Below are positions 30,115 through 59,845 of a DNA stretch of 64,000 nucleotides, piece by piece; positions within the stretch are counted from its first letter, which is position 1; each line of letters starts with the position of its first letter. The notes under the pieces are model-generated. The model saw nothing but the letters and a program-made list of their open reading frames with translations. It searched no databases and was not told where the DNA came from. This DNA is from Escherichia coli (GTDB lineage: Bacteria > Pseudomonadota > Gammaproteobacteria > Enterobacterales > Enterobacteriaceae), in assembly GCF_003334385.1 (NCBI RefSeq), contig NZ_QOWN01000017.1; one strand, given 5' to 3'. The position numbers and the translations under genes were made by a program.

Positions 30115-30129
30115 GATTAGGGGCTTCCC

Positions 30130-31378: not shown

Positions 31379-31382
31379 GGTT

Positions 31383-34043: not shown

Positions 34044-36039
<1,996 letters not shown>

Positions 36040-36168: not shown

Positions 36169-37295
<1,127 letters not shown>

Positions 37296-37497: not shown

Positions 37498-38445
37498 ATG
37501 CGTGTGTTACTGGCACCGATGGAGGGAGTGCTTGACTCTCTGGTGCGTGAATTGCTGACCGAAGTTAACGACTACGATCTGTGCATCACCGAGTTTGTCC
37601 GCGTGGTGGATCAACTGCTGCCGGTAAAAGTCTTTCATCGCATTTGCCCTGAGCTACAAAACGCCAGCCGGACACCATCTGGTACGCTGGTGCGCGTGCA
37701 GTTGTTAGGTCAGTTCCCACAATGGCTGGCAGAGAACGCCGCCCGTGCGGTGGAGTTAGGTTCCTGGGGCGTGGATCTCAATTGCGGCTGCCCGTCGAAA
37801 ACGGTTAACGGTAGCGGCGGCGGGGCGACGTTACTCAAAGATCCTGAACTCATCTACCAGGGTGCAAAAGCGATGCGTGAAGCTGTACCGGCGCATTTGC
37901 CCGTCAGCGTGAAAGTGCGTCTGGGCTGGGACAGCGGTGAGAAGAAATTTGAAATCGCCGATGCGGTTCAACAGGCTGGCGCTACGGAGCTGGTGGTGCA
38001 TGGGCGGACGAAAGAGCAGGGTTACCGCGCGGAGCATATTGACTGGCAGGCGATTGGCGATATTCGCCAGCGGCTGAATATTCCGGTGATTGCCAACGGT
38101 GAAATCTGGGACTGGCAGAGCGCGCAACAATGCATGGCGATCAGCGGTTGCGACGCAGTGATGATTGGTCGCGGGGCGCTCAATATTCCCAACCTGAGCC
38201 GGGTGGTAAAATATAACGAACCGCGAATGCCGTGGCCGGAGGTGGTTGCTTTGCTGCAAAAATATACCCGTCTGGAAAAGCAGGGCGATACCGGGTTATA
38301 TCACGTTGCGCGGATTAAACAGTGGTTGAGTTATTTGCGTAAAGAATACGATGAAGCAACGGAATTATTTCAGCATGTTCGGGTGTTGAATAATTCCCCT
38401 GATATTGCAAGGGCTATTCAGGCAATTGATATCGAGAAACTCTAA
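37498..38445 (+). CDS. dusC: tRNA-dihydrouridine(16) synthase DusC (315 aa)
   Basis: Start trimmed to ATG ([10 protein letters not shown]...); Dus TIM-barrel motifs. Confidence 0.93.
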
Positions 38446-38817
38446 AAAACCATAGTGATGTTTTTTGACAATGTGTTAGCTCTTTATCAATAGGCCGCAC
38501 GGTTGTTTGGTGGCGTCAAAATTGCCGAGGCGTTCCCTGAAGGCCGGGGCAGCCCACATGGATGTGGGCTGAGGGCGCGTTTTACAGGGATGTTACCTCG
38601 CGCCCGACCCGGTAGCCGTAAGGGATAAGTCGAGGGCACCGCGCAGCGGCGATTTTGTTCGCCAGAGCCCGGGGGTGCAGGGGGCGGCGGCGATTGGCCG
38701 CCCCCTGCGCGCTCCTTGCGCCAGTGATTATATGAAGCAATGCACATGACAGGAGCGCAACAGGATGAGAGACTGAAATATTCTCGTTATTTTCGGACCT
38801 GATGACATTAATTAATT

Positions 38818-38901
38818 TTAAAATATCATCTTAAATACGCCAGTCACCACCAGTAGCCCAATCAGGAAAATAATCAATACAGCCCAGAGTATAATTTTCA
38901 T
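38818..38901 (-). CDS. yohP: Small membrane protein YohP (27 aa)
   Basis: Not in ORF track; direct translation gives MKIILWAVLIIFLIGLLVVTGVFKMIF, matching YohP from memory. Confidence 0.8.
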   Translation of the reverse strand: MKIILWAVLIIFLIGLLVVTGVFKMIF

Positions 38902-39124
38902 TGGCGTTCCTTTATTTGTGAGTGCTGAATAAGTATAGGAAAAAACGAAGCCCTTTGCCGTTATCCATAAACGATTAAGATAAATCGGAAGATATCATTC
39001 ACTTAGTGTATATTTTTCTGGATATGTCGTTTTATTGCCACTGATGTATTGCCACGCGAAACTAAAAAATATATCGCAACACACGGTAATCTCCGCGCAC
39101 CTTTTCTTACCTGATTATTCCCCC

Positions 39125-40561
39125 ATGAATCGTGATTCCTTTTATCCAGCCATCGCCTGTTTTCCGCTGTTACTGATGCTGGCCGGGTGTGCGCCTATGC
39201 ATGAAACCCGCCAGGCGTTAAGCCAGCAAACGCCCGCTGCACAAGTTGACACCGCATTACCCACGGCGCTGAAAAATGGTTGGCCAGACAGCCAATGGTG
39301 GCTGGAGTATCACGATAATCAACTCACTTCCTTAATTAACAATGCACTACAGAACGCACCGGATATGCAGGTGGCTGAACAGCGCATTCAGCTAGCTGAA
39401 GCCCAGGCGAAGGCAGTTGCCACTCAGGATGGTCCGCAGATCGACTTTTCGGCGGATATGGAGCGGCAAAAAATGTCGGCAGAAGGCTTAATGGGGCCGT
39501 TTGCTCTGAACGATCCGGCCGCAGGTACGACCGGCCCGTGGTACACCAACGGTACTTTTGGCTTAACGGCGGGCTGGCATCTCGATATCTGGGGAAAGAA
39601 TCGGGCGGAGGTTACTGCCCGCCTGGGTACGGTTAAAGCACGGGCGGCGGAACGCGAGCAAACCCGCCAATTGCTGGCTGGCAGCGTAGCCCGCCTGTAC
39701 TGGGAGTGGCAAACCCAGGCGGCGTTAAACACGGTCTTGCAGCAAATAGAAAAAGAGCAGAACACCATTATCGCGACCGATCGCCAGCTATATCAGAACG
39801 GGATTACTTCTTCAGTTGAAGGTGTGGAAACCGATATTAATGCCAGCAAAACCCGGCAGCAGCTCAACGATGTCGCGGGGAAAATGAAAATTATTGAGGC
39901 ACGGTTAAGCGCACTTACAAATAACCAGACAAAGTCATTGAAGCTTAAACCGGTCGCGTTGCCGAAAGTGGCAAGCCAGCTTCCTGATGAACTGGGGTAC
40001 TCCTTACTGGCCCGGCGGGCAGATTTGCAGGCGGCGCACTGGTACGTTGAGTCATCGCTAAGCACCATTGATGCGGCAAAAGCGGCATTTTATCCTGACA
40101 TCAACCTGATGGCCTTCCTGCAACAGGATGCGTTGCACTTAAGCGATCTGTTCCGTCATTCCGCGCAGCAAATGGGCGTTACGGCAGGCCTGACGCTACC
40201 CATTTTCGATAGTGGTCGTCTTAACGCCAATCTCGATATCGCAAAAGCCGAAAGCAACTTGTCTATCGCCAGCTACAACAAAGCGGTGGTTGAAGCGGTG
40301 AATGACGTGGCGCGGGCAGCCAGTCAGGTTCAGACACTGGCGGAGAAAAACCAGCATCAGGCGCAAATTGAGCGCGATGCCTTGCGTGTGGTAGGTCTTG
40401 CGCAGGCGCGCTTTAACGCGGGCATCATTGCTGGTTCCCGCGTCAGCGAAGCCAGAATCCCCGCGCTGCGTGAGCGGGCCAATGGCCTGTTATTGCAAGG
40501 GCAGTGGCTGGATGCCTCCATTCAACTCACTGGTGCGTTGGGCGGGGGTTACAAACGCTGA
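39125..40561 (+). CDS. mdtQ: Outer-membrane efflux lipoprotein MdtQ (OMF family), intact 478-aa reading frame
   Basis: Start at ATG (MNRDSFYPAIACFPLLLMLAGC, lipobox LAGC); single uninterrupted ORF. Confidence 0.85.
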   Translation: MNRDSFYPAIACFPLLLMLAGCAPMHETRQALSQQTPAAQVDTALPTALKNGWPDSQWWLEYHDNQLTSLINNALQNAPDMQVAEQRIQLAEAQAKAVATQDGPQIDFSADMERQKMSAEGLMGPFALNDPAAGTTGPWYTNGTFGLTAGWHLDIWGKNRAEVTARLGTVKARAAEREQTRQLLAGSVARLYWEWQTQAALNTVLQQIEKEQNTIIATDRQLYQNGITSSVEGVETDINASKTRQQLNDVAGKMKIIEARLSALTNNQTKSLKLKPVALPKVASQLPDELGYSLLARRADLQAAHWYVESSLSTIDAAKAAFYPDINLMAFLQQDALHLSDLFRHSAQQMGVTAGLTLPIFDSGRLNANLDIAKAESNLSIASYNKAVVEAVNDVARAASQVQTLAEKNQHQAQIERDALRVVGLAQARFNAGIIAGSRVSEARIPALRERANGLLLQGQWLDASIQLTGALGGGYKR

Positions 40562-40613
40562 TGATATGCGCCTTCTATACTTAACGTTTATTCAGCGTTA
40601 AGTGGAGAACTCG

Positions 40614-41375
40614 ATGGCACAGGTTGCGATTATTACCGCCTCCGATTCGGGGATCGGCAAAGAGTGCGCGTTATTACTGGCGCAGCAGGGGTTTGATATT
40701 GGTATTACCTGGCACTCAGATGAAGAAGGGGCAAAAGATACCGCGCGTGAGGTAGTTAGCCACGGCGTACGTGCGGAGATCGTGCAGCTGGATCTCGGCA
40801 ATCTACCAGAAGGGGCACTGGCTCTGGAGAAACTCATTCAACGGCTGGGGCGCATTGATGTGCTGGTGAATAATGCGGGTGCAATGACCAAAGCGCCGTT
40901 TCTTGATATGGCTTTTGATGAGTGGCGCAAGATTTTTACCGTTGATGTCGATGGTGCATTCTTATGCTCGCAAATTGCGGCTCGTCAGATGGTGAAACAA
41001 GGGCAGGGCGGTCGCATCATCAACATTACGTCGGTACATGAACATACGCCGCTGCCGGATGCCAGCGCCTACACAGCCGCTAAACATGCGCTCGGTGGGT
41101 TAACCAAAGCGATGGCGCTGGAGCTGGTCAGGCATAAGATTTTGGTGAACGCAGTCGCGCCTGGGGCGATCGCCACGCCAATGAATGGCATGGATGACAG
41201 CGACGTGAAGCCCGACGCGGAGCCTTCGATTCCCTTGCGGCGTTTTGGCGCAACGCATGAGATTGCCAGCCTGGTGGTGTGGCTTTGTTCGGAGGGCGCA
41301 AATTACACCACCGGGCAGTCGTTGATAGTGGATGGCGGCTTTATGTTGGCGAATCCACAGTTCAACCCAGAATAG
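40614..41375 (+). CDS. yohF: Short-chain dehydrogenase/reductase YohF (253 aa)
   Basis: Start at ATG (MAQVAIITASDSGIGK, Rossmann TGxxxGIG). Confidence 0.9.
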   Translation: MAQVAIITASDSGIGKECALLLAQQGFDIGITWHSDEEGAKDTAREVVSHGVRAEIVQLDLGNLPEGALALEKLIQRLGRIDVLVNNAGAMTKAPFLDMAFDEWRKIFTVDVDGAFLCSQIAARQMVKQGQGGRIINITSVHEHTPLPDASAYTAAKHALGGLTKAMALELVRHKILVNAVAPGAIATPMNGMDDSDVKPDAEPSIPLRRFGATHEIASLVVWLCSEGANYTTGQSLIVDGGFMLANPQFNPE

Positions 41376-41427
41376 CGCAGTGAGGTGCGTGGATATTTCA
41401 TTGGGTAATATTTTGGTCGGCATGAAA

Positions 41428-41497
41428 AGACGCACAAGCGTCGTATCAGGCATGGTACTCCGGATGTCGGATGCGGCGCGAACGCCTTATCCAGGGC
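41428..41497. repeat. REP-like element
   Basis: cggatgtcggatgcggcgcgaacgccttatcc between yohF and yohD. Confidence 0.6.
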
Positions 41498-41504
41498 AAT
41501 GGTT

Positions 41505-42083
41505 TTACGCCTGATGATCCGGCTTTTTCTTCCCGCGTCGTTTCAGCCACCAGCGCACGCCCACCACCAGAACCACGACCAGAATCAACCAGACCCAGTG
41601 CTTCAAATGCTGGTCGAGATTGTGCAACCACGGCGCAATCACCTGACCACCAGCGTAACCAATAGTGGTAAAAATCAACGCCCAGGCAAATGCGCCGAGA
41701 ATATTCAGCGGCAGAAAGATTTTCGGCGGCAGCTGGCTGGCACCAATCAGCGTCGGGCCAATCACCCGAAAGCCATACATAAAGCGCGTACCAATGACAA
41801 ACAGATACGGATGGCGTTGGATAAGTTTCTGCGCCCGCTCAATTTTATCCTGATGTTTCGAGAAACGGCGTAACAGCTTGCCGCCAAACCGCCGCCCGCA
41901 CAGATAGAGCACCTGGTCGCCAATCATGCCGCCAAGCGCCACAGAAAGTACCACCAGCGGGAACTTTAATAGCCCCTGATGCGCCGCAACGCCTCCCAGC
42001 AAAGTCACGGTTTCACCTTCCGCCAGGCTACCGATCACCAGCGCGGCATAACCATATTGTGAGATAAGTGTATTGAGATCCAT
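41505..42083 (-). CDS. yohD: DedA-family inner membrane protein YohD (192 aa)
   Basis: Start trimmed to ATG (MDLNTLISQYGYAALV...). Confidence 0.9.
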   Translation of the reverse strand: MDLNTLISQYGYAALVIGSLAEGETVTLLGGVAAHQGLLKFPLVVLSVALGGMIGDQVLYLCGRRFGGKLLRRFSKHQDKIERAQKLIQRHPYLFVIGTRFMYGFRVIGPTLIGASQLPPKIFLPLNILGAFAWALIFTTIGYAGGQVIAPWLHNLDQHLKHWVWLILVVVLVVGVRWWLKRRGKKKPDHQA

Positions 42084-42252
42084 AGGCCAGTCTGTCTCCC
42101 TTTGGTTGCCAGTAAGCATACACCCTGTGAATCATTCACGCTGAAAAAGGACGTTCATCAGACAGTGAAAATTACATGGGCGAACAAAAAATAATCACAA
42201 GCTGACTTATACTTGAACTGTCAGGTTCATGAACTCACAACAAGGGGGCGGT

Positions 42253-42840
42253 ATGAGCCATGTCTGGGGACTGTTTTCCCATCCCGATCGTGAAATGCAG
42301 GTGATTAATCGCGAAAACGAAACGATTTCTCACCATTACACCCACCACGTTTTGCTGATGGCGGCGATTCCGGTGATTTGCGCCTTCATTGGCACTACAC
42401 AGATTGGCTGGAATTTTGGCGATGGCACTATCCTGAAGTTATCCTGGTTTACCGGACTGGCGCTGGCTGTCTTGTTTTACGGCGTTATGCTGGCTGGGGT
42501 CGCGGTGATGGGGCGGGTCATCTGGTGGATGGCGCGTAATTATCCGCAGCGTCCGTCACTTGCGCACTGCATGGTCTTCGCGGGCTACGTTGCAACTCCG
42601 CTGTTTTTAAGCGGTCTGGTGGCGCTTTATCCACTGGTCTGGTTGTGTGCGCTGGTCGGCACGGTGGCGCTGTTTTACACCGGCTACCTGCTTTACCTTG
42701 GTATTCCGAGCTTCCTGAATATCAACAAAGAGGAAGGCCTTAGCTTCTCTAGTTCGACGCTGGCGATTGGCGTGCTGGTACTGGAAGTGCTGCTCGCCCT
42801 AACCGTTATACTATGGGGCTACGGTTATCGTTTGTTCTAG
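42253..42840 (+). CDS. yohC: Yip1-family inner membrane protein YohC (195 aa)
   Basis: Start trimmed to ATG (MSHVWGLFSHP...). Confidence 0.9.
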   Translation: MSHVWGLFSHPDREMQVINRENETISHHYTHHVLLMAAIPVICAFIGTTQIGWNFGDGTILKLSWFTGLALAVLFYGVMLAGVAVMGRVIWWMARNYPQRPSLAHCMVFAGYVATPLFLSGLVALYPLVWLCALVGTVALFYTGYLLYLGIPSFLNINKEEGLSFSSSTLAIGVLVLEVLLALTVILWGYGYRLF

Positions 42841-43013
42841 AAAGTTCTTTGACGTTGCATTGCTGGCGTAAATGTCAGCAATGCAGCATTTCCTCACGAT
42901 TCTCCTTTGACGATCGCACTTTTTGCTCGTTATGATGGCGTCGCTAGCCTCAGTAAATCCTTACTCCGGCGGTGCGCAACCCGTGCGCGTGAACCACTAT
43001 CTGAATGCTCATC

Positions 43014-43946
43014 ATGCCGAAATTTCGAGTTTCTTTATTTAGCCTGGCCCTGATGCTGGCTGTGCCTTTTGCACCGCAGGCCGTTGCGAAAACGGCAGCC
43101 GCTACCACCGCTTCACAACCGGAAATTGCCTCCGGTAGCGCGATGATTGTTGATCTGAATACCAACAAAGTGATCTATTCGAACCACCCGGATCTGGTGC
43201 GTCCGATTGCGTCTATCAGCAAATTAATGACCGCGATGGTTGTGCTGGATGCACGACTGCCGCTGGATGAAAAACTAAAAGTGGATATCAGCCAGACGCC
43301 GGAGATGAAAGGGGTCTATTCGCGCGTACGACTGAATAGCGAAATCAGCCGTAAAGATATGCTGTTGCTGGCGCTGATGTCTTCAGAAAACCGCGCGGCG
43401 GCAAGCCTTGCGCACCATTATCCCGGTGGTTACAAAGCCTTTATTAAGGCAATGAATGCGAAAGCGAAATCGCTCGGAATGAACAACACGCGCTTTGTTG
43501 AACCTACCGGATTGTCGGTGCATAACGTTTCAACTGCCCGTGACTTAACCAAACTGCTCATTGCCAGCAAACAATATCCGTTGATCGGGCAGTTAAGTAC
43601 TACCCGGGAAGATATGGCAACCTTCTCTAATCCGACGTATACGCTGCCGTTCCGCAATACTAATCATCTGGTGTATCGCGATAACTGGAATATTCAGTTA
43701 ACCAAAACCGGCTTTACCAATGCGGCGGGCCATTGTCTGGTGATGCGTACGGTTATCAATAATAAACCGGTGGCGCTGGTAGTGATGGACGCGTTTGGCA
43801 AATATACCCATTTTGCCGATGCCAGCCGCCTGCGTACCTGGATTGAAACCGGTAAAGTGATGCCTGTGCCGGCAGCAGCGTTGAGCTATAAAAAACAAAA
43901 AGCCGCCCAAATGGCGGCGGCGGGGCAGACGGCACAGAACGATTAA
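43014..43946 (+). CDS. pbpG: D-alanyl-D-alanine endopeptidase PBP7
   Basis: Start at ATG ([10 protein letters not shown]...), signal peptide, SxxK motif (SISK). Confidence 0.93.
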
Positions 43947-43953
43947 GTGAATT

Positions 43954-43986
43954 CGGATGGCGATACTCTGCCATCCGTAATTTTTA
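43954..43986. terminator. Hairpin terminator shared by convergent pbpG and dld
   Basis: CGGATGG-10 nt loop-CCATCCG followed by TAATTTTT; the dld stop lies within the T-run. Confidence 0.65.
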
Positions 43987-45699
43987 CTCCACTTCCTGCC
44001 AGTTTTTCCGTTTACTGGTTTTACCGATCCCCGGATTCATGCTGTTGGTCGGATCGTTCTCGCGATAGAACTTCTGCAACGTCTCCGGTGCTTTATACAA
44101 ATGACCGACGTTATGCTCGGCAGGGTACTGCGCGCCGCGCTGCTGTAGCAGTTCCAGCATCTGTTCTTTTAACGCATGCACATCCACGCCTTTTTTCACT
44201 ATGTAATCCTGATGGAAGACATAGCACATAAAATGGCCGTAATAGAGCTTGTGCACCAGCTGGCTGTCGATCTCCGGCGGTAAATGCTCATACCACTCGG
44301 TGTCGTTACGCCGCAGAGCGATATCCAACGCCAGAATGTCTTCGACTTCATCGGAATGCACCGCCTGATAACGAATTGCTGCGCCCGCAGCGGCGAAACG
44401 GTGTAAAAACGCTTTGCTGCCTTCCTCCGGCGTACAGACAAAGAAATCGCCTTCGGCCTGTTTGAAATAATCCACCAGCCACGATTTGGCTTCGCCCACG
44501 CCATCGCCCGCCATTTTTAACAGCAGATGATGCTCGTATTTATCGCGCCAGTTTTTCATGCGCGGCGGTAAATGGCTGGGGAACAGGTGACCGAATTTTT
44601 GCATCGCACGGTCAGTAAAATGCGGACGGAAGAATTTCACTTTCTCCAGCATCGCATCGGTGCGTCCCTTGAGATTAAAGAAGAACGGCATCTTGTCGGT
44701 GCCTAACTTATCAATCATCAGGAAGGTGTCTTTGCCGTATTTTTCCGCAATATCGTAGATATTCCGGTGCATATATTCCCCGGCAACCGGCAGATTTTCG
44801 AAGTTAGCCAGAATATGACGGCGGATTTCGGTCAGCACTTCCGGCTGGTTGGTGCCGATATAAAACACCTGCTGATTTTTTTCCGCTTCGAAGGTATCAA
44901 GACGTACTGCAAAGACCGCCAGCTTCCCGGCGCAACCAGAAGATTCAAATAACCGATCAGGATCGGCGTTATAACGTGCGGGCGTGTCGGCTTCAATATC
45001 ACGAACGCGGTGGACATAGTCATAATCGTGGGCGTGACGACCATCGTGACGCACATCGTCATCTTTGATGCGATCATCATCCAGCTTGCTAAGGATCTGC
45101 TCCGGCGTTTCGCCCAGATCAATCCCCAGATGGTTCACCAGCGTCAGTTTGCCGTCTTCATTTATACGCGCGAATAACGACATTTCGGTATACGCCGGGC
45201 CACGTTGCACCAGCGAGCCGCCGGAGTTGTTACAAATACCGCCGATGACCGATGCGCCTATACACGATGATCCAATCACTGAGTGCGGTTCGCGTCCCAG
45301 CGGTTTGAGGGCTTTTTCCAGCGAATAGAGCGTGGTGCCCGGATAGGCCAGCACCTGTTCGCCCTTGCCAAGAACGTGCAGCTTGTCGAGACGCAGGGTG
45401 CTGATGATAACGACATCGCGATCATAATCGTTACCGTTTGGCGTCGATCCTTCGGTCAGGCCTGTATTGGCGGCCTGCATCAGAATAATTTTGTCGGCGG
45501 TGACGCAGGCTTTCAGCACCCGCCACAATTCTAGTAGTGAGCCAGGGAAAACGACAGCCAGCGCGTCGCCCTGACCAGAACGGAAGCCCTTGCGATAGCG
45601 GGCCGTTTTTGCGGGATCGGTGAGCAGGTGTGAAGAACCCACCAGACGAGCAAGTTCATTCAAAAAGGCTTTATTATCAGTTGTTGTCATGGAAGACAT
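43984..45699 (-). CDS. dld: FAD-dependent D-lactate dehydrogenase (571 aa)
   Basis: Start trimmed to ATG (MSSMTTTDNKAFLNEL...). Confidence 0.93.
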   Translation of the reverse strand: MSSMTTTDNKAFLNELARLVGSSHLLTDPAKTARYRKGFRSGQGDALAVVFPGSLLELWRVLKACVTADKIILMQAANTGLTEGSTPNGNDYDRDVVIISTLRLDKLHVLGKGEQVLAYPGTTLYSLEKALKPLGREPHSVIGSSCIGASVIGGICNNSGGSLVQRGPAYTEMSLFARINEDGKLTLVNHLGIDLGETPEQILSKLDDDRIKDDDVRHDGRHAHDYDYVHRVRDIEADTPARYNADPDRLFESSGCAGKLAVFAVRLDTFEAEKNQQVFYIGTNQPEVLTEIRRHILANFENLPVAGEYMHRNIYDIAEKYGKDTFLMIDKLGTDKMPFFFNLKGRTDAMLEKVKFFRPHFTDRAMQKFGHLFPSHLPPRMKNWRDKYEHHLLLKMAGDGVGEAKSWLVDYFKQAEGDFFVCTPEEGSKAFLHRFAAAGAAIRYQAVHSDEVEDILALDIALRRNDTEWYEHLPPEIDSQLVHKLYYGHFMCYVFHQDYIVKKGVDVHALKEQMLELLQQRGAQYPAEHNVGHLYKAPETLQKFYRENDPTNSMNPGIGKTSKRKNWQEVE

Positions 45700-45894
45700 T
45701 TTCCACTCCTTGTGGTGGCGAAAAAATATCACAAACTAGAATAGCGCCTTGTATAACAATTCAGCGAGTGAATATTTTGAAAATTCAGACAATAAACTGA
45801 GCATTCTTTTTCTCTCTCCATCATGCTTATGGCAAACTACGGTTTTTGCACCATTTTCGCTGCCACGTCGGGCAACAAAGGAAGAAAAATCCAT

Positions 45895-48192
45895 ATGAAA
45901 TGGCTATGTTCAGTAGGAATCGCGGTGAGTCTGGCCCTGCAGCCAGCACTGGCGGATGATTTATTCGGCAACCATCCATTAACGCCCGAAGCGCGGGATG
46001 CGTTCGTCACCGAACTGCTTAAGAAAATGACAGTTGATGAGAAAATTGGTCAGCTGCGCTTAATCAGCGTCGGCCCGGATAACCCGAAAGAGGCGATCCG
46101 CGAGATGATCAAAGACGGTCAGGTTGGGGCGATTTTCAACACCGTAACCCGTCAGGATATCCGCGCCATGCAGGATCAGGTGATGGAATTAAGCCGCCTG
46201 AAAATTCCTCTTTTCTTTGCTTACGACGTGCTGCACGGTCAGCGCACGGTGTTCCCGATTAGCCTCGGTCTGGCCTCGTCTTTTAACCTCGATGCAGTGA
46301 AAACGGTCGGACGTGTCTCTGCTTATGAAGCGGCAGATGATGGCCTGAATATGACCTGGGCACCGATGGTCGATGTCTCGCGCGATCCGCGCTGGGGACG
46401 TGCTTCCGAAGGTTTTGGCGAAGATACGTATCTCACCTCAACAATGGGTAAAACCATGGTGGAAGCGATGCAGGGTAAAAGCCCGGCAGATCGCTACTCG
46501 GTGATGACCAGCGTCAAACACTTTGCCGCATACGGCGCGGTAGAAGGCGGTAAAGAGTACAACACCGTCGATATGAGTCCGCAGCGCCTGTTTAATGATT
46601 ATATGCCGCCGTACAAAGCGGGGCTGGACGCAGGCAGCGGCGCGGTGATGGTGGCGCTGAACTCGCTGAACGGCACGCCAGCCACCTCCGATTCCTGGCT
46701 GCTGAAAGATGTTCTGCGCGACCAGTGGGGCTTTAAAGGCATCACCGTTTCCGATCACGGTGCAATCAAAGAGCTGATTAAACATGGCACGGCGGCAGAC
46801 CCGGAAGATGCGGTGCGCGTGGCGCTGAAATCCGGAATCAACATGAGCATGAGCGACGAGTACTACTCGAAGTATCTGCCTGGGTTGATTAAATCCGGCA
46901 AAGTGACGATGGCAGAGCTGGACGATGCTGCCCGCCATGTACTGAACGTTAAATATGATATGGGGTTGTTTAACGACCCATACAGCCATTTGGGGCCGAA
47001 AGAGTCTGACCCGGTGGATACCAATGCCGAAAGCCGCCTGCACCGTAAAGAAGCGCGTGAAGTGGCGCGCGAAAGCTTGGTGTTGCTGAAAAACCGTCTC
47101 GAAACGTTACCGCTGAAAAAATCGGCCACCATTGCGGTGGTTGGGCCACTGGCGGACAGTAAACGTGACGTGATGGGCAGCTGGTCCGCAGCCGGTGTTG
47201 CCGATCAATCCGTGACCGTACTGACCGGGATTAAAAATGCCGTCGGTGAAAACGGTAAAGTGCTGTATGCCAAAGGGGCGAACGTTACCAGTGACAAAGG
47301 CATTATCGATTTCCTGAATCAGTATGAAGAAGCGGTCAAAGTCGATCCGCGTTCGCCGCAAGAGATGATTGATGAAGCGGTGCAGACGGCGAAACAATCT
47401 GATGTGGTGGTGGCTGTAGTCGGTGAAGCACAGGGGATGGCGCACGAAGCCTCCAGCCGGACCGATATCACTATTCCGCAAAGCCAACGTGACTTGATTG
47501 CGGCGCTGAAAGCCACCGGTAAACCGCTGGTGCTGGTGCTGATGAACGGGCGTCCGCTGGCGCTGGTGAAAGAAGATCAGCAGGCTGATGCGATTCTGGA
47601 AACCTGGTTTGCGGGGACTGAAGGCGGTAATGCAATTGCCGATGTATTGTTTGGCGATTACAACCCGTCCGGCAAGCTGCCAATGTCCTTCCCGCGTTCT
47701 GTCGGGCAGATCCCGGTGTACTACAGCCATCTGAATACCGGTCGCCCGTATAATGCCGACAAGCCGAACAAATACACTTCGCGTTATTTTGATGAAGCTA
47801 ACGGGGCGTTGTATCCGTTCGGCTATGGGCTGAGCTACACCACTTTCACCGTCTCTGATGTGAAACTTTCTGCGCCGACCATGAAGCGTGACGGCAAAGT
47901 GACTGCCAGCGTGCAGGTGACGAACACCGGTAAGCGCGAGGGTGCCACGGTAGTGCAGATGTACTTGCAGGATGTGACGGCTTCCATGAGTCGCCCTGTG
48001 AAACAGCTGAAAGGCTTTGAGAAAATCACCCTGAAACCGGGCGAAACTCAGACTGTCAGCTTCCCGATCGATATTGAGGCGCTGAAGTTCTGGAATCAAC
48101 AGATGAAATATGACGCCGAGCCTGGCAAGTTCAATGTCTTTATCGGCACTGATTCCGCACGCGTTAAGAAAGGCGAGTTTGAGTTGCTGTAA
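45895..48192 (+). CDS. bglX: Periplasmic beta-glucosidase BglX (GH3; 765 aa)
   Basis: Start at ATG (MKWLCSVGIAVSLALQPALA signal peptide). Confidence 0.93.
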   Translation: MKWLCSVGIAVSLALQPALADDLFGNHPLTPEARDAFVTELLKKMTVDEKIGQLRLISVGPDNPKEAIREMIKDGQVGAIFNTVTRQDIRAMQDQVMELSRLKIPLFFAYDVLHGQRTVFPISLGLASSFNLDAVKTVGRVSAYEAADDGLNMTWAPMVDVSRDPRWGRASEGFGEDTYLTSTMGKTMVEAMQGKSPADRYSVMTSVKHFAAYGAVEGGKEYNTVDMSPQRLFNDYMPPYKAGLDAGSGAVMVALNSLNGTPATSDSWLLKDVLRDQWGFKGITVSDHGAIKELIKHGTAADPEDAVRVALKSGINMSMSDEYYSKYLPGLIKSGKVTMAELDDAARHVLNVKYDMGLFNDPYSHLGPKESDPVDTNAESRLHRKEAREVARESLVLLKNRLETLPLKKSATIAVVGPLADSKRDVMGSWSAAGVADQSVTVLTGIKNAVGENGKVLYAKGANVTSDKGIIDFLNQYEEAVKVDPRSPQEMIDEAVQTAKQSDVVVAVVGEAQGMAHEASSRTDITIPQSQRDLIAALKATGKPLVLVLMNGRPLALVKEDQQADAILETWFAGTEGGNAIADVLFGDYNPSGKLPMSFPRSVGQIPVYYSHLNTGRPYNADKPNKYTSRYFDEANGALYPFGYGLSYTTFTVSDVKLSAPTMKRDGKVTASVQVTNTGKREGATVVQMYLQDVTASMSRPVKQLKGFEKITLKPGETQTVSFPIDIEALKFWNQQMKYDAEPGKFNVFIGTDSARVKKGEFELL

Positions 48193-48224
48193 TGCTTTAG
48201 TAAGGGCGCGACGTTTGCGCCCTT

Positions 48225-48260
48225 TGTAGGCCGGATAAGGCGCTCGCGCCGCATCCGGCA
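48225..48260. repeat. REP element
   Basis: tgtaggccggataaggcgctcgcgccgcatccggca, preceded by GGGCGC/GCGCCC hairpin at 48204..48222. Confidence 0.8.
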
Positions 48261-48402
48261 GGAAACGCCGGACCGAATATGCCTCTTAAGTATTTATCTG
48301 ATTCTGCAACTGAATCCTTCCGCTCAAGCTAACCCCGCCATTATCAACTATGCTTTTCTCTTAATTCGCTGAAAACAACAGTAAAAGAATGAGGAAAGCA
48401 TC

Positions 48403-49320
48403 ATGCCACTCTTAAAGCTCTGGGCAGGTTCACTGGTTATGTTGGCAGCCGTGAGCCTGCCGCTACAGGCGGCTTCCCCCGTTAAAGTCGGTTCAAAAAT
48501 CGATACCGAAGGTGCGCTACTCGGCAATATCATTTTGCAGGTGCTGGAAAGCCACGGCGTACCGACGGTGAATAAAGTGCAACTCGGAACGACTCCTGTG
48601 GTGCGCGGGGCGATTACTTCCGGTGAACTGGATATCTATCCGGAATATACCGGCAATGGCGCTTTCTTCTTTAAAGATGAAAACGATGCAGCGTGGAAAA
48701 ACGCGCAGCAAGGTTACGAGAAAGTCAAAAAGCTCGATTCGGAGCACAACAAGTTAATCTGGCTGACGCCCGCGCCTGCAAATAACACCTGGACTATCGC
48801 CGTGCGTCAGGATGTGGCAGAGAAAAATAAACTCACTTCGCTTGCCGACCTGAGTCGTTATCTGCAAGAGGGCGGCACCTTCAAACTGGCAGCCTCGGCA
48901 GAGTTTATCGAACGCGCCGATGCGTTACCCGCGTTTGAAAAAGCCTATGGCTTTAAGCTCGGTCAGGATCAGTTGCTGTCACTGGCTGGTGGCGACACGG
49001 CGGTGACGATCAAAGCCGCTGCCCAGCAAACCTCTGGCGTTAATGCTGCAATGGCTTACGGCACTGACGGCCCGGTAGCGGCGCTGGGGCTGCAAACCTT
49101 AAGCGATCCGCAAGGTGTGCAACCTATCTACGCGCCTGCACCAGTGGTGCGTGAGTCGGTGTTGAGGGAGTATCCGCAAATGGCACAGTGGCTACAGCCA
49201 GTCTTCGCCAGCCTCGATGCAAAAACATTGCAGCAACTGAATGCCAGCATTGCTGTGGAAGGACTGGATGCCAAAAAAGTGGCTGCCGACTACCTGAAAC
49301 AAAAAGGGTGGACGAAGTAA
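48403..49320 (+). CDS. osmF: Glycine betaine ABC transporter periplasmic binding protein OsmF (YehZ)
   Basis: 305-aa ORF with signal peptide; first gene of a 4-gene ABC operon. Confidence 0.93.
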   Translation: MPLLKLWAGSLVMLAAVSLPLQAASPVKVGSKIDTEGALLGNIILQVLESHGVPTVNKVQLGTTPVVRGAITSGELDIYPEYTGNGAFFFKDENDAAWKNAQQGYEKVKKLDSEHNKLIWLTPAPANNTWTIAVRQDVAEKNKLTSLADLSRYLQEGGTFKLAASAEFIERADALPAFEKAYGFKLGQDQLLSLAGGDTAVTIKAAAQQTSGVNAAMAYGTDGPVAALGLQTLSDPQGVQPIYAPAPVVRESVLREYPQMAQWLQPVFASLDAKTLQQLNASIAVEGLDAKKVAADYLKQKGWTK

Positions 49321-49326
49321 TTTCCC

Positions 49327-50484
49327 GTGACTTATTTCCGTATTAATCCTGTTCTGGCGCTGCTGCTGTTGCTGACGGCAATCGCAGCGGCGCTGCCGTT
49401 TATCAGTTACGCGCCTAATCGTTTAGTTTCGGGTGAGGGGCGTCATCTCTGGCAGCTGTGGCCGCAAACGATCTGGATGCTGGTGGGCGTTGGTTGCGCC
49501 TGGCTGACGGCCTGTTTTATTCCCGGTAAAAAAGGCAGCATTTGTGCACTCATTCTGGCGCAATTCGTCTTCGTATTGCTGGTGTGGGGAGCTGGAAAGG
49601 CGGCGACCCAACTGGCGCAAAATGGCAGTGCGCTGGCGCGTACCAGCCTCGGCAGTGGTTTCTGGCTGGCTGCGGCGCTGGCATTGCTGGCCTGTAGCGA
49701 TGCCATCCGCCGAATCTCCACGCATCCGCTGTGGCGCTGGTTGTTGCATATGCAGATTGCCATTATTCCGCTGTGGTTGCTGTACTCCGGCACGCTTAAC
49801 GATCTCTCACTAATGAAAGAATACGCCAACCGTCAGGATGTGTTTGACGACGCGCTGGCACAACATCTGACGTTGCTGTTTGGTGCGGTGCTGCCTGCGT
49901 TAGTGATTGGTGTGCCGTTGGGCATCTGGTGCTACTTTTCCACTGCTCGGCAGGGGGCAATTTTTTCTCTGCTCAATGTGATTCAGACCGTGCCTTCGGT
50001 GGCGCTCTTTGGCCTGTTGATTGCGCCGCTTGCCGCGCTGGTTACGGCCTTTCCGTGGCTGGGGACGCTCGGCATAGCAGGAACCGGAATGACACCCGCA
50101 CTGATTGCGCTGGTGCTCTATGCCTTGCTGCCGCTGGTGCGCGGCGTGGTAGTCGGTTTGAACCAGATCCCGCGCGATGTGCTGGAAAGCGCCAGAGCGA
50201 TGGGGATGAGCGGGGCGCAGCGTTTCCTGCATGTTCAGTTACCGCTGGCGTTACCGGTATTTCTGCGCAGCCTGCGGGTGGTGATGGTGCAAACTGTAGG
50301 TATGGCGGTGATTGCGGCGTTAATCGGTGCAGGCGGTTTTGGTGCGCTGGTTTTCCAGGGGCTGCTAAGCAGCGCCATTGATTTAGTGTTGCTGGGGGTG
50401 ATCCCGGTAATTGTTCTGGCGGTGCTTACCGACGCGCTGTTCGATTTGCTTATCGCACTGCTGAAGGTGAAACGTAATGATTGA
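49327..50484 (+). CDS. yehY: Glycine betaine ABC transporter permease YehY
   Basis: 385-aa polytopic ORF. Confidence 0.9.
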
Positions 50485-51403
50485 ATTTAGCCATGTCAGC
50501 AAACTGTTCGGCGCACAAAAAGCCGTTAACGATCTCAATCTCAATTTTCAGGAAGGGAGTTTTTCGGTGCTGATTGGCACATCTGGCTCCGGCAAATCCA
50601 CCACCCTGAAAATGATTAACCGCCTGGTGGAGCATGACAGCGGAGAGATCCGCTTTGCCGGAGAAGAAATTCGCTCGCTGCCAGTACTGGAGTTGCGCCG
50701 CCGGATGGGCTATGCCATTCAATCTATTGGCCTGTTCCCCCACTGGAGCGTGGCGCAAAACATCGCTACCGTGCCGCAATTACAAAAATGGTCGCGGGCG
50801 CGGATTGACGATCGTATCGACGAATTAATGGCGCTACTGGGGCTGGAGTCAAATTTGCGTGAGCGTTATCCGCATCAGCTTTCCGGTGGTCAGCAGCAAC
50901 GTGTGGGAGTGGCGCGTGCACTGGCTGCCGATCCGCAAGTCTTACTAATGGATGAACCTTTTGGCGCACTGGACCCGGTAACGCGCGGCGCGTTGCAACA
51001 AGAGATGACGCGCATTCACCGTTTGCTGGGGCGTACCATTGTGCTGGTCACTCATGATATTGATGAGGCGCTACGGCTGGCAGAACATCTGGTATTGATG
51101 GATCACGGTGAAGTAGTGCAGCAGGGCAATCCGCTGACGATGCTGACTCGTCCGGCGAATGATTTTGTCCGCCAGTTTTTTGGACGTAGTGAACTGGGTG
51201 TGCGCCTGCTTTCGTTACGTAGTGTGGCGGATTACGTGCGTCGCGAAGAACGAGCAGATGGTGAGGCACTGGCAGAAGAGATGACGCTACGCGATGCGCT
51301 CTCTCTGTTTGTTGCGCGGGGATGCGAGGTGCTGCCGGTGGTGAACATGCAGGGCCAGCCTTGCGGCACGCTGCATTTTCAGGATCTGCTGGTGGAGGCG
51401 TAA
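50477..51403 (+). CDS. yehX: Glycine betaine ABC transporter ATPase YehX
   Basis: 308-aa ORF; Walker [10 protein letters not shown], signature LSGGQQQR. Confidence 0.93.
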
Positions 51404-51407
51404 GCGT

Positions 51408-52139
51408 ATGAAGATGTTGCGCGATCCGCTGTTCTGGCTCATTGCTCTGTTTGTGGCGCTGATTTTCTGGCTGCCTTACAGCCAGCCGCTGTTTGCTGCC
51501 TTGTTCCCACAACTGCCACGACCCGTTTATCAGCAAGAAAGTTTTGCAGCTCTGGCACTGGCTCATTTCTGGCTGGTGGGAATTTCGAGTTTGTTTGCGG
51601 TGATCATTGGCACTGGTGCCGGAATTGCTGTCACTCGCCCGTGGGGCGCGGAATTTCGCCCACTGGTGGAAACTATTGCCGCCGTTGGACAGACTTTTCC
51701 GCCCGTCGCAGTGCTGGCGATCGCCGTTCCGGTGATCGGCTTTGGTCTGCAACCAGCGATTATCGCCTTGATCCTTTACGGTGTGCTGCCCGTCCTGCAG
51801 GCGACACTTGCCGGGCTGGGAGCGATTGATGCCAGCGTGACAGAAGTTGCGAAAGGTATGGGAATGAGTCGTGGTCAGCGACTGCGTAAGGTCGAGCTAC
51901 CGCTGGCGGCTCCGGTGATTCTGGCGGGCGTGCGAACTTCGGTGATTATCAACATTGGTACGGCGACGATCGCCTCAACGGTAGGGGCCAGCACGCTGGG
52001 TACGCCCATCATCATCGGGCTTAGCGGATTTAATACCGCGTATGTGATCCAGGGGGCGTTACTGGTGGCACTGGCGGCGATCATCGCAGACCGCCTGTTT
52101 GAAAGGCTGGTGCAGGCGCTTAGCCAGCACGCAAAATAA
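51408..52139 (+). CDS. yehW: Glycine betaine ABC transporter permease YehW
   Basis: 243-aa polytopic ORF. Confidence 0.9.
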
Positions 52140-52227
52140 AGGTATAACCTGCGAGCATGACGCCACCAATTCCGCCTAACGCCATAAACAGGAACAGGGC
52201 GATGACCCCAATTTTAGCTATGCGCAT
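52120..52227 (-). CDS. yohO: Small membrane protein YohO (35 aa)
   Basis: Not in ORF track; translation gives [35 protein letters not shown]; 3' end overlaps yehW by 20 nt (convergent). Confidence 0.75.
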
Positions 52228-52286
52228 AATGCACTCCTTATGTTAACGAAAGGATTGTACAGTAAAGCGCATTTGTTAACGAATCA

Positions 52287-52979
52287 TTAAATGCCGAGTG
52301 GGAAAATATCATGGCCTTGTTCTTGCCAACTGGTGAGTTGCTGCTGTTGGGCGGAGGTTCGATTTTCACCGCACCACACCAGCAATGTACGGCCTTCGAA
52401 TAGTTCAGGGCGTAGTTGATTGAGCGAGTGGGCGAGGACATCAATGCGCCATCCTTGTTGACTGGCAATCCAGCCCTCCAGCCACAGACGGGTGGTATCC
52501 TGAATATTCCAGCCAACCACCAGCGCATCTTTACCCTGTTTTTTACGTGCCGAAGCCAGACAAATGGCGATGTAGTTGATCAGTACGCCGTCGAGGATCG
52601 CCAGCAGCGCCTGGAGAGTCGGTTGTTGGCACTGAAGCCGTCGGCGCAGAGGAATAAACAGATGTGTGGTGAGTGTCTGGGCGGGGTAATCCTGACCGCG
52701 CTCTTTGATCCACGTTCGCAGGCTATGTAGATTGCCGCTTTGCAGGTAAGTCAGTAATGTTTCTTGCTGATCGCGCCAGCCGTTCTGCACATCAACATTT
52801 TCATTACTGAGCAGCATTTTAACTTTGCTGACCTGCACGCCGTTGTCGATCCAGCGTTTGATCTCGCGGATCCGGTCAATATCGGCATCGTTGAACAGCC
52901 GATGACCGCCGTCTGTCCGTTGCGGTTTCAGCAATCCGTAACGCCTCTGCCACGCGCGTAACGTGACAGGGATTAAGGG
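52287..52979 (-). pseudogene. mlrA: mlrA (yehV) MerR-family curli regulator, 5'-truncated by prophage insertion
   Basis: Translation matches MlrA from ...PVTLRAWQRRYGLLKPQRTDGG to the C-terminus; the first ~17 codons are replaced by unrelated sequence with an in-frame stop at 53004..53006 and no start codon. Confidence 0.8.
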
Positions 52980-53008: not shown

Positions 53009-54295
53009 TTACCCAGCTTTCTTATGGGGCATACATGGGACACTTTCAGATAGTCTTTTGTTAAGGAGTTCTATCTGTTCGTGATTGTTGTCTTTCATCC
53101 ATGCTCCGTAAACATTGAATACCATTTGTGCGTTTGTGTGGCCCATCTGGCTTGCGATAAAACTAGGATTAGCTCCAGCGGCAAGTGACCAGCATGCATA
53201 AGTATGCCTGGATTGGTACGATTTTCTGTGTCTCAGACCTGCGCGTTTTAAGATACTTGTCCATGACTCCCTGATGGAGTCAACCTTATAGTGCGGTCCG
53301 GAAAACTGCCGCTGTTTTATTACCTGAGGACTAAAAACAAAAGTGCATTTATGCACAGTACTTCTCCCATATTCCCTCTGCTTTACCTCTACAGAATGTT
53401 GCTTTCCAAGCATGGTCATTTCCGCCTGACTTTTAAGAGCATCAATAGCTGGTTGAACCAGATGAATTGTCCTTCCGGTGCCAGCATCGGTTTTTGGTGG
53501 AGTGAATTCGCCAAGTTTTGTATAATTCCTACGGATGGTTATAGTCCTTGCTTTAAGATCTATATCTTCCCATGCCAGCGATACCAGCTCCCCGTGACGA
53601 ATACCCGTGTATACAGCGAGAATCCACAGGTTTTTTGTTTGTTGATGACGGCAAGCCTCAATAAAACGAATAAATTCGTCACGGGTGAGAGGATCTGGTT
53701 TTACCTTGGACTTTTTTAAGGGGGCCAGACCGTTAAATGGGTTTCCTGAGGTATAACCATTATCTGTTGCAAATTGAAACATTCCAGCTATGGTTGTCAT
53801 ATAGTAGTTTACTGTGACCACTGAGCGCCCTTTTATGGAAGAAATCTTTCCATTAGAAAGCTTTTGGTAACCGGTCAACAAATCTCTCCTTGCGAAAAGT
53901 AAATCCTCTTTTGTTATGGATGAAACCAGTTTTTTCTCACCCAACATAGGCAACATGTTTTTAATTACTGACTGGTAACGATTAAGTGCATTCGCACAAA
54001 TCTCAATTTTCTTAAGGTCCAACCATTTTTCCGAAAGTGCCTTAACGGTTATCTCTCTTTTTCCCAGACCAAAGTGTTTCAGGTTAGGGGAATTAGGGAA
54101 CTGTGTAGCGTAGTCGAAACTCCCCATTCTGATTGCAAAACAAACGGAAGTGCGAAGTTCACCTGCGATCTTCCGGTTTTTGGCGGTGTCAGGAACACCG
54201 AGGTTTTCTCTGACACGTTTGCCATTATAGTGAAACCATATACGGAGTGATCCTCCATGGTTTTCAACGCCTGTCGGGTATGATACGTTACTCAT
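53009..54295 (-). CDS. int: Phage integrase (tyrosine recombinase)
   Basis: 428-aa ORF; GGGAGG SD; C-terminal catalytic region with conserved R...HxxR...Y pattern (RHTYACW, final Y in NVYGAWM). Confidence 0.85.
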   Translation of the reverse strand: MSNVSYPTGVENHGGSLRIWFHYNGKRVRENLGVPDTAKNRKIAGELRTSVCFAIRMGSFDYATQFPNSPNLKHFGLGKREITVKALSEKWLDLKKIEICANALNRYQSVIKNMLPMLGEKKLVSSITKEDLLFARRDLLTGYQKLSNGKISSIKGRSVVTVNYYMTTIAGMFQFATDNGYTSGNPFNGLAPLKKSKVKPDPLTRDEFIRFIEACRHQQTKNLWILAVYTGIRHGELVSLAWEDIDLKARTITIRRNYTKLGEFTPPKTDAGTGRTIHLVQPAIDALKSQAEMTMLGKQHSVEVKQREYGRSTVHKCTFVFSPQVIKQRQFSGPHYKVDSIRESWTSILKRAGLRHRKSYQSRHTYACWSLAAGANPSFIASQMGHTNAQMVFNVYGAWMKDNNHEQIELLNKRLSESVPCMPHKKAG

Positions 54296-54583: not shown

Positions 54584-54739
54584 GCCAGCCTCATAAAACT
54601 TTCATCCACGGCAGTGGCACCACATTTCAAACATTCGCTTCACAACTTCACGACAGTAGAAGCCATCAACATCTCGCGTCAGGTCATAGTGATTGCCGTA
54701 ACGCTGGTGGACCCATCGTTCAAATGCTTTATTCATTCT

Positions 54740-54982: not shown

Positions 54983-55066
54983 GTGGTTATCCCCATCGAC
55001 AAATCGAGAACACAACAAACGCTGCTGCGAATACCACCCCCAGAGTTACGATTGCATCAGGCCAGC

Positions 55067-56011
55067 TCATTGATTCACCTCCTGCCTGTCGTCCGGCATT
55101 CGCTCACTACAGCTTATCCAACCATCCGGAGTTACCGGAACTTGTGGAATGGCTGTCTGCTCTCGAACGTCATTAGGCGCTATAGGTTCTGCTGCCAACT
55201 GACTGGCATATTTGTTAATGGTAACGATAAGCTCTTGCTCAGCCTCATCCAGACAATCACCGATACCTCGCCTGTCACCGTCAAAATCATCGAAATCGGC
55301 ACGAATCCTGGCAACCTTCAGGATTGCGGACAACACCTCACTAGGAATTGCCGGATAGTTGGTTGACGTTTCCGCGATTTCCCGAAAATTATTGGTTGAC
55401 GAATTCTTGTTTTCCCGAAAGTTTCCGGACTGAAGCATGGCGGCGCGGCAGGCGTTCCATATTTCGGCAGCAATATCGCGCTCGCTATCGGTTAATTTGT
55501 ACGTTGAAACATAGCCAGAGAGCATTTCTACGTTTTCCGGAGTTGCTTCTTCAGGCACTACCGGTGCTGGCTCACGTATTACAGGCTCGCCCATGCGTGA
55601 TTCTCCCTGCGCCTCTTTCACCATGTGGTCATTGATTTGCTCCAGTCGCCGAACGTGCTCATCAGCTTCAAGCGCTCGCCGTTTCCAGATGGACAGGTCT
55701 TCACGAGCGCCCTGATATGCGTCACCGTATTCGCCGTTAAATACTGGCGCTGGCGGGGCGATGCGTCCAAGCAACTTATTTACCTCTTTCGCCATCGCGT
55801 CATATTTATCTAAATAGCGATTAGCTTCTAAGCAGACTCGGTGCATCTGATCTGAGTTAACTCGTTTAACTGGATCTGCTTCCAATGATGCCAGTGCAAT
55901 TCGTGCCAGTTCTTCCGCTTCTTCTGCTGGCAGTACAACGTTGCTACCCGGTCCGTATGTTTCGCGCCACTGCTTGATTGTCAGCAGTCGCCCTTTGGTA
56001 ATAGTGATCAT
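55067..56011 (-). CDS. Hypothetical phage protein (314 aa), shares RIALASLEA(D/E)PV motif with the 56428..56877 product
   Basis: Strong SD AAGAGGA; paralogous N-terminal motif; C-terminal GWISCSERMPDD resembles DUF551-type phage proteins (from memory). Confidence 0.6.
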   Translation of the reverse strand: MITITKGRLLTIKQWRETYGPGSNVVLPAEEAEELARIALASLEADPVKRVNSDQMHRVCLEANRYLDKYDAMAKEVNKLLGRIAPPAPVFNGEYGDAYQGAREDLSIWKRRALEADEHVRRLEQINDHMVKEAQGESRMGEPVIREPAPVVPEEATPENVEMLSGYVSTYKLTDSERDIAAEIWNACRAAMLQSGNFRENKNSSTNNFREIAETSTNYPAIPSEVLSAILKVARIRADFDDFDGDRRGIGDCLDEAEQELIVTINKYASQLAAEPIAPNDVREQTAIPQVPVTPDGWISCSERMPDDRQEVNQ

Positions 56012-57276: not shown

Positions 57277-57455
57277 CTTACTGCGTACCCTTTCTTCCGC
57301 CTGTTCTGTGACGCGCTAGGCTTTTTGCAACAACTGTGCCCCATCACCCCGCAACACCCCGTCAACCTCACTCGTCTGTTACTAATCCTCAACCATCGCC
57401 AGACCCCAACACCGTTTCTGCGAGCTAACAGAATTTTTGCCTTACGGTTTTTCAT
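57273..57455 (-). CDS. Small basic phage protein (60 aa), tandem paralogue B
   Basis: MKNRKAKILLAR...WLRISNRRV; SD AGGAGA; start overlaps upstream stop (ATGA). Confidence 0.5.
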   Translation of the reverse strand: MKNRKAKILLARRNGVGVWRWLRISNRRVRLTGCCGVMGHSCCKKPSASQNRRKKGYAVR

Positions 57456-57628
57456 CGTTTTGTTCTCCTGCGTTTCTTTGCTGCTCGTCGTGCCGCTGCA
57501 ATACCGGTATGGCGGCGCTTTGGTGCCGGGATGATGTTGTCAGCCATCAGGACATGTGGCTTTGCAATTAGCGCAGAAGCCCAAAAACGAGTCGGGTACG
57601 GTAACAAGCCGATACATGCCACACGCAT
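57452..57628 (-). CDS. Small basic phage protein (58 aa)
   Basis: Below track threshold; SD AGGAGG 6 nt before ATG; start overlaps the Ea22-like stop (TAATG) and stop overlaps next start (ATGA). Confidence 0.5.
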   Translation of the reverse strand: MRVACIGLLPYPTRFWASALIAKPHVLMADNIIPAPKRRHTGIAAARRAAKKRRRTKR

Positions 57629-59263: not shown

Positions 59264-59845
59264 TTACTTAATATCTGTTTCGGATTGCATGCCATGAGTA
59301 TTCATTTCGTTAATAATTTCATCCAGAAGGATTTCAAGCCCTTCTCGACCCATATCTGAAAGAATGAAACCTTTATCAGGGGAAGTAGTGAGCATTTTCT
59401 GATAAAGAAACAGCGCTCTTCCCATTCCTTCAGTTTCGCCGTATTTTTGAATTAAATTCCATTCAATATACTGTTGTAAGGCAAATCGAATGGGGCCGGG
59501 ATATATCGTCATAAACCCATACATCCCGTTATATACCACGGCGTGTTCAGTTGTTCCGTGTTCATTCAGGATATCAATTGTGCCGTTCTTGTCTTCTTCT
59601 TCGTTGATGAATGTCGTCACATACAACCATCGCCACTGAGCAACCTTCATCTCAACCGGAAGTTTACCCAGTAATCCTGCTTCGTCGGCTTGCGCCAGAC
59701 ACTGAAGGATACGTAAACCTCGCACATTAGGAGTATCGAATTCTCCGGCATCCAGACGACGTATGGCGTCGTGATAATCAATCGTCATACTGCCAGTTCG
59801 TATACCATTGGCTGTTGCTTCAGCCTGGAATTCATCGTATTGCAT
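59264..59845 (-). CDS. Hypothetical phage protein (193 aa)
   Basis: SD GAGGA; no recognisable motifs. Confidence 0.55.
   Translation of the reverse strand: MQYDEFQAEATANGIRTGSMTIDYHDAIRRLDAGEFDTPNVRGLRILQCLAQADEAGLLGKLPVEMKVAQWRWLYVTTFINEEEDKNGTIDILNEHGTTEHAVVYNGMYGFMTIYPGPIRFALQQYIEWNLIQKYGETEGMGRALFLYQKMLTTSPDKGFILSDMGREGLEILLDEIINEMNTHGMQSETDIK

Follow-up and report, generated by a model that had tools for sequence, protein, structure and literature searches.

In the window analysed here, the whole 64,000-nucleotide stretch of Escherichia coli DNA, yohO and yohP almost certainly form two distinct single-gene units, each transcribed on its own; both are annotated in E. coli K-12, and each encodes a small inner-membrane protein with a single transmembrane (TM) helix. 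Both genes were already known, being annotated in E. coli, and YohP has been studied in depth; the finding is correct but ordinary. What is said below on the identity, annotation and conservation of the two genes, on their coding-type pattern of substitution and on their conserved promoter and ribosome-binding elements comes from the present analysis; expression, membrane location and the YohP phenotype are taken from published papers. In a six-frame list of open reading frames (ORFs) with a 20-aa cut-off and, for the overlap, also in the RefSeq arrangement, the features concerned are as follows.

52120..52227, minus strand: yohO coding sequence (CDS), ATG start, 35 aa; single-pass small membrane protein, UPF0387
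38818..38901, minus strand: yohP CDS, ATG start, 27 aa, MKIILWAVLIIFLIGLLVVTGVFKMIF; single-pass small membrane protein
51408..52139, plus strand: yehW CDS, 243 aa; permease of the OsmF-YehYXW glycine betaine ABC transporter, a neighbour and not part of yohO
52120..52139, tail-to-tail: 20-nt overlap of the yohO and yehW CDSs

A first-pass annotation of this DNA had called yohO and yohP as real genes, had described the 20-nt convergence of the yohO and yehW 3' ends, and had proposed a comparison with K-12 small-protein annotations in which non-matching peptides would count as refutation. Over 1..52976 the window follows E. coli K-12 MG1655 collinearly, in reverse orientation and at 99.95% identity, and the peptides were identical to those of K-12 b4542 ('UPF0387 family protein YohO') at 35/35 residues and b4679 ('putative membrane protein YohP') at 27/27, so the proposed test does not refute the calls; the RefSeq arrangement likewise agrees with the overlap. 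Both peptides matched NCBIfam equivalog profiles along their whole lengths: YohO scored 80.1 bits against NF010225 (cut-off 57; residues 1-35 on profile positions 1-35 of 35), and YohP 67.3 bits against NF011345 (cut-off 58; positions 1-27 of 27). RefSeq places both genes at matching syntenic coordinates in further complete E. coli genomes, the yohO region was found in 5424/5426 complete genomes, and the exact YohO and YohP sequences, so named, each occur on at least 1000 contigs in a public protein collection. A Pfam-A profile search with YohO returned only a non-significant match to B12D. Since YohO homologues that are 60-91% identical (P0030, P0019 and P0004) carry PF27791 (UPF0387_membrane) in precomputed tables, this family is probably missing from the copy of Pfam-A that was scanned.

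The syntenic positions are those expected, with yohO downstream of mlrA and convergent with yehW, and yohP between dusC and mdtQ, an organisation also described elsewhere (PMC12719787). The gene for YohO is no different from its K-12 counterpart (b4542; NF010225; PF27791), having the same 35-aa peptide, the same mlrA-yehW position and the same 20-nt overlap. The difference from K-12 lies upstream, where a prophage has deprived mlrA of its first 15 codons and promoter; the yohO -10 element and ribosome-binding site are intact. YohP similarly matches K-12 YohP (b4679; NF011345; Salmonella STnc1330) in its 27-aa peptide and dusC-mdtQ position, and its locus differs in that the adjoining mdtQ (39125..40561, plus strand) has an uninterrupted reading frame, like that of BL21, whereas it is a pseudogene in K-12 MG1655 despite the 99.95% identity elsewhere.

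The prophage is lambdoid and extends from about 52977 to 64000, with an integrase at 53009..54295 (minus strand). It is inserted in the 5' end of mlrA, leaving a remnant at 52287..52976, and the match to K-12 ends at 52976. Phage-derived sequence stands in place of the first 15 MlrA codons (MALYTIGEVALLCDI), and in lysogens the gene is still annotated by RefSeq, as a 233-aa 'MlrA'. Coverage of 80% or more of the prophage stretch was reached by none of the complete E. coli genomes in the collection.

Whether such short ORFs stand out from chance depends on evidence other than their length. Mechanical ORFs of 27-59 aa number 492 in the window, 175 of them with an ATG start, and an ORF of this size is by itself not beyond chance. 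yohO and yohP rise above chance because they are identical to annotated proteins, combine ATG with a Shine-Dalgarno core and are conserved across species. A filter requiring ATG plus a 5-nt Shine-Dalgarno core at 4-15 nt upstream reduced the 492 ORFs to six: the two chromosomal ones, which are yohO and yohP, and four of 27-58 aa in the prophage.

54602..54736, minus strand: prophage ORF, 44 aa, ATG and Shine-Dalgarno; RefSeq-annotated in relatives; phrog_3871 over its full length
57452..57628, minus strand: prophage ORF, 58 aa, ATG and Shine-Dalgarno; phrog_13831 over 58/58 positions
54987..55070, minus strand: prophage ORF, ATG and Shine-Dalgarno; no PHROG match
59490..59639, plus strand: prophage ORF, ATG and Shine-Dalgarno; no PHROG match

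Both phrog_3871 and phrog_13831 are PHROG families of unknown function. In this size class of 27-59 aa, YohP also stands alone in the window in reaching a grand average of hydropathy (GRAVY) of 1.8 or more, its own value being 2.47. The claim of the first-pass annotation that a 60-aa cut-off hides real genes was borne out by yohO and yohP, both annotated and both shorter than 60 aa, and its relevance to the sub-60-aa prophage ORFs was upheld by the at least two that match phage protein families over their full length. Because the K-12 annotation lists no CDS shorter than 60 aa other than yohO and yohP across the syntenic 53 kb, none was missed on the chromosomal side. The 60-aa cut-off thus hid every annotated small protein of the window, namely YohO and YohP as well as two or more conserved proteins of the prophage. 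Lowering the cut-off alone would add 492 ORFs of 27-59 aa, nearly all of them noise, so a list made in this way needs a filter to be useful; as a calibration point, the simple ATG plus Shine-Dalgarno filter retrieves those proteins together with two unsupported prophage ORFs.

The abundance of short ORFs, 492 in 64 kb, would be the argument for regarding yohO and yohP as untranslated chance frames in or near intergenic DNA, but this has practically no chance of being correct. It conflicts with exact identity to curated K-12 proteins, with the NCBIfam equivalog matches of both, and with the preservation of yohO length, frame and start across more than 100 species, with variation biased to third positions, among the matches listed. 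Protein detection has moreover been published for YohO and YohP, and conservation and detection together have already refuted the chance-frame reading.

Conservation of yohO as a protein-coding gene was examined in two ways. A profile-free search of 1.84 billion representative proteins yielded only 17 YohO clusters, all with a common 11-residue core. A species scan, in which this core was back-translated and compared with one genome per species, recovered at least 120 loci; the resulting cross-species counts describe a sample of species and are no census. Two loci, L083 (a Spirochaete transporter) and L089, were excluded as chance matches, and two others, L062 and L117, for want of an in-register start codon or because they were clipped by the locus end. 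Among the matches listed, 116 of 120 loci carry an ORF of 34-37 aa with an in-register start and the motif beginning at residue 18. This ORF spans about 30 Enterobacterales genera among those matches, including Escherichia, Salmonella, Citrobacter, Enterobacter, Klebsiella, Raoultella, Kosakonia and Buttiauxella, as well as Cedecea, Atlantibacter, Erwinia, Pantoea, Dickeya, Brenneria, Lonsdalea and Sodalis.

With the codons fixed by the search pattern left out, column entropy among the matches listed was 1.11 bits at the first codon position, 0.58 at the second and 1.47 at the third, and mean pN/pS was 0.36-0.52, with pS near saturation. None of the alternative frames was open throughout, the best being open in 66/114 of the listed matches. 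Taken together, the entropy, pN/pS and frame pattern are those of a protein-coding gene maintained by purifying selection.

The region preceding yohO contains two elements that recur across species.

52234..52239, minus strand: yohO Shine-Dalgarno AAGGAG, 6 nt before the ATG, read from the sequence
52254..52259, minus strand: yohO -10-like hexamer TACAAT, starting at -32 from the ATG; putative own promoter

Among the matches listed, the Shine-Dalgarno core is present in 99/116 yohO loci, and 104 of the 112 distinct upstream regions have, within -42..-29 and most often at -32, a hexamer matching TATAAT in at least 5 of 6 positions, compared with 0-3 of 112 in control windows. Because this -10 box is conserved and the gene upstream is mlrA in only 66/95 loci among the matches listed, yohO probably has its own conserved promoter. 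As the evidence suggests, the gene would consist of its own -10 box 32 nt 5' of the ATG, an AAGGAG ribosome-binding site and 35 codons. A consensus scan found no full sigma-70 promoter on the minus strand upstream of yohO or yohP, so the promoters proposed for both genes are placed by -10 conservation only. Co-transcription with mlrA was considered as the only source of yohO expression and is unlikely, the -10 box being kept whatever gene lies upstream.

The 59-nt spacer between mlrA and yohO also contains two copies of the direct repeat TTCGTTAACA (52283..52274 and 52250..52241, minus strand), 33 nt apart and flanking the -10 box. The repeats contain the palindrome GTTAAC and are partly conserved in Citrobacter and Salmonella, and may be due to chance.

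At its other end, yohO meets yehW in most of the species sampled. In an ORF-based test, the convergent ORF was a YehW homologue in 87 loci among the matches listed, and the CDSs overlapped by 14-26 nt in 86 of these 87 (20 nt, n=45; 26 nt, n=27; 23 nt, n=7; 14 nt, n=6; 17 nt, n=1), the one exception among them being Sodalis, with a 10-nt gap. Identification of the downstream neighbour by tblastn gave YehW in 88/113 informative loci among the matches listed, and the convergent arrangement was also seen in three independent look-ups. The other 25 of the 113 listed informative loci have no adjacent yehW; 17 face bglX and eight, from Erwinia and Pantoea, face other genes. In the 17 listed loci that face bglX, osmF-yehYXW is absent from the site and yohO is retained, and the promoter and ribosome-binding architecture is kept in the loci without adjacent yehW among the matches listed. 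One such arrangement comes from Escherichia sp. MOD1-EC7003 (locus L105), where mlrA and yohO (1604..1711) are followed by bglX, the whole of osmF-yehYXW is missing at the site, and YohO has the same peptide sequence as in E. coli. Because yohO is kept where yehW is not adjacent, comparative gene order indicates that the overlap is widely inherited and that yohO is independent of adjacent transporter genes.

We infer that the overlap might nevertheless carry regulatory meaning. The pair yohO-yehW is among 165 convergent excludons found in at least 50% of MG1655 RNA-seq samples (PMC12288877), and a terminator scan found no intrinsic terminator between the yohO stop and yehW. The one 'terminator' call in the vicinity (52210..52195) lies within the yohO coding sequence and is at chance level (1 found, 0.6 expected). 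The 3' end of yohO and its transcript run antisense into the end of yehW, and the resulting overlap of convergent transcription may put the two genes under negative coupling.

Taken to its limit, this would make yohO chiefly an antisense (excludon) regulator of osmF-yehYXW, with the overlap as the selected feature and the peptide secondary. The 14-26 nt overlap kept in 86/87 YehW-convergent loci among the matches listed, the excludon listing of the pair in MG1655 (PMC12288877) and the lack of an intrinsic terminator from the yohO stop to yehW agree with it, but purifying selection acts on the peptide, whose Gly-rich core is invariant, yohO is retained in 25/113 loci without adjacent yehW among the matches listed, including an Escherichia lineage, and the overlap could be mere inherited synteny; a primarily antisense role is accordingly judged quite unlikely. 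A less exclusive proposal is that the conserved overlap and own promoter reflect selected coupling, in which yohO transcription or the YohO peptide would tune stress-induced OsmF-YehYXW. We hold this only tentatively and think it improbable; if true, it would give YohO its first function.

The same neighbourhood could be read as evidence that YohO is a small accessory subunit of OsmF-YehYXW, comparable to KdpF in KdpABC or AcrZ with AcrB. Such a role would suit both the glycine-zipper-like helix face of YohO, which is apt for packing, and the adjacency to yehW in 88/113 loci whatever gene lies upstream (MlrA in 66/95), again among the matches listed. It is decidedly unlikely, since yohO lies on the strand opposite the operon with a promoter of its own, is kept in 25/113 loci where the operon is not adjacent among the matches listed, and is linked to the transporter in no paper found by a literature search. 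YohO as an obligate partner of YehYXW was rejected, as yohO persists without the adjacent operon.

The preferred reading of yohO is a one-gene unit encoding a membrane peptide. YohO has a GRAVY of 1.58 and, in its best 19-residue Kyte-Doolittle window, a score of 2.41, with one hydrophobic stretch long enough to span a bilayer. It has been detected by top-down mass spectrometry at less than 50% sequence coverage (PMC12529367) and seen in Ribo-seq, where it is described as membrane-bound (bioRxiv 10.1101/2020.05.05.079178); no paper assigning it a function was found in the searchable literature. Residues G18, G19, G22 and G27 are invariant, and the spacing G18-x3-G22-x3-A26 is that of a helix face. 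The protein has a basic N-terminus (R2, K5), then a helix whose invariant Gly-rich face comprises G18 G19 I G G22 V M L A26 G27 Y, and, close to its C-terminus, R33. The invariant glycines and their spacing suggest a helix-packing role, and YohO may therefore act in the inner membrane by packing its helix against that of a second YohO molecule or of a partner protein.

YohO and YohP share with AcrZ, MgtS, MgrB, CydX and KdpF a length below 50 aa, one TM helix and stress-linked expression (class per PMC12719787). Members of that class act by binding larger membrane proteins; YohO is not known to have a partner, and, in contrast to the defined partners of the class, the published effect of YohP is on the bilayer and membrane potential. 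For YohO, the comparative data (own promoter, invariant Gly-rich helix face and dispensable overlap) narrow the hypotheses without solving its function. What is modestly new is comparative only: the yohO promoter is apparently its own and conserved, and the yehW overlap is conserved yet dispensable.

The yohP unit is organised in a comparable manner, with its own conserved elements directly upstream.

38907..38912, minus strand: yohP Shine-Dalgarno AAGGAA, 5 nt before the ATG; invariant in a four-species alignment (A2)
38932..38938, minus strand: yohP -10 element CTATACT, within the invariant TTTCCTATACT

Three further yohP orthologues were found within the collected loci, in two Citrobacter species and Intestinirhabdus alba; each encodes 27 aa, is 85-89% identical and occupies the same relative place in its species. 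In the alignment of these with Escherichia, TTTCCTATACT, AAGGAA and the CDS are kept, and the sequence farther upstream and that right after the stop codon diverge. The best 19-residue Kyte-Doolittle window of YohP scores 2.96, and its hydrophobic stretch is long enough to span a bilayer. With C at -13, CTATACT is what we take to be a sigma-S-type extended -10. The gene comprises this -10, a short leader, the AAGGAA site and 27 codons, nearly all of them for one hydrophobic helix. Such a -10 fits the rpoS dependence of Salmonella YohP (first catalogued as the sRNA STnc1330), which is plentiful in stationary phase and can scarcely be detected when rpoS is mutated (PMC5437024).

Stationary phase, minimal medium and oxygen limitation all induce E. 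coli YohP, and papers conflict on its induction by SDS/EDTA and H2O2 (per PMC12719787). The protein is located in the inner membrane (PMC12719787), having been recognised post-translationally by SRP and inserted via SecYEG or YidC, with mRNA targeting used instead under stress (PMC12719787, PMC12648545). It dimerises via a glycine motif and, at high levels, brings about nucleoid condensation (PMC12719787). Its production lowers membrane fluidity and potential, elicits the stringent response and decreases metabolic enzymes, and its loss reduces stress survival, the depolarisation being described as non-lethal (PMC12719787). In the published account, YohP is produced in stationary phase and when nutrients are limiting, and it partly lowers membrane potential, which sets off ppGpp accumulation and what the authors term 'metabolic silencing'.

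These properties raise the question of whether the yohP locus is a type I toxin-antitoxin-like module, or chiefly a small RNA (STnc1330). YohP resembles small hydrophobic toxins and lowers membrane potential (PMC12719787), its Salmonella orthologue was first listed as a non-coding sRNA (PMC5437024), and a promoter-like site on the plus strand (38802..38829; ATGACA-16-TATCAT, 10/12 matches), directed towards mdtQ, would read antisense through yohP. But the Salmonella RNA was shown to be coding and its protein abundant (PMC5437024), the depolarisation is non-lethal and loss of yohP lowers stress survival (PMC12719787), and no Rfam family was found at the yohP locus. The antisense site is at chance level (1 found, 1.1 expected) with its -35 in non-conserved sequence, and no antitoxin small RNA adjacent to or overlapping yohP was found by Rfam or by way of this lone site. 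Type I toxins such as TisB share with YohP a short hydrophobic helix with basic flanks and the lowering of membrane potential; YohP differs in having no detectable antitoxin RNA and an effect reported to be non-lethal and protective, and no toxicity is reported for YohO. Either a toxin-antitoxin or an sRNA identity for yohP is considered very improbable, in favour of an independently transcribed gene for a small membrane protein.

Between dusC and yohP, immediately beyond the yohP stop, there is an unannotated GC-rich repeat of about 150 nt (38585..38735), which could serve as a transcript end or stabiliser. It includes a hairpin at 38677..38708 formed by a perfect 12-bp inverted repeat, GCAGGGGGCGGC/GCCGCCCCCTGC, and occurs at a median of three places per E. 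coli genome. Elsewhere in the window, four Rfam matches were obtained at the gathering threshold.

31203..31280, plus strand: naRNA4, 88.3 bits
42929..43009, plus strand: Peptidase-S11 RNA motif, upstream of pbpG, 72.8 bits
63406..63482, plus strand: isrK, in the prophage, 58.7 bits
63507..63594, plus strand: C4 antisense RNA, in the prophage, 78.8 bits
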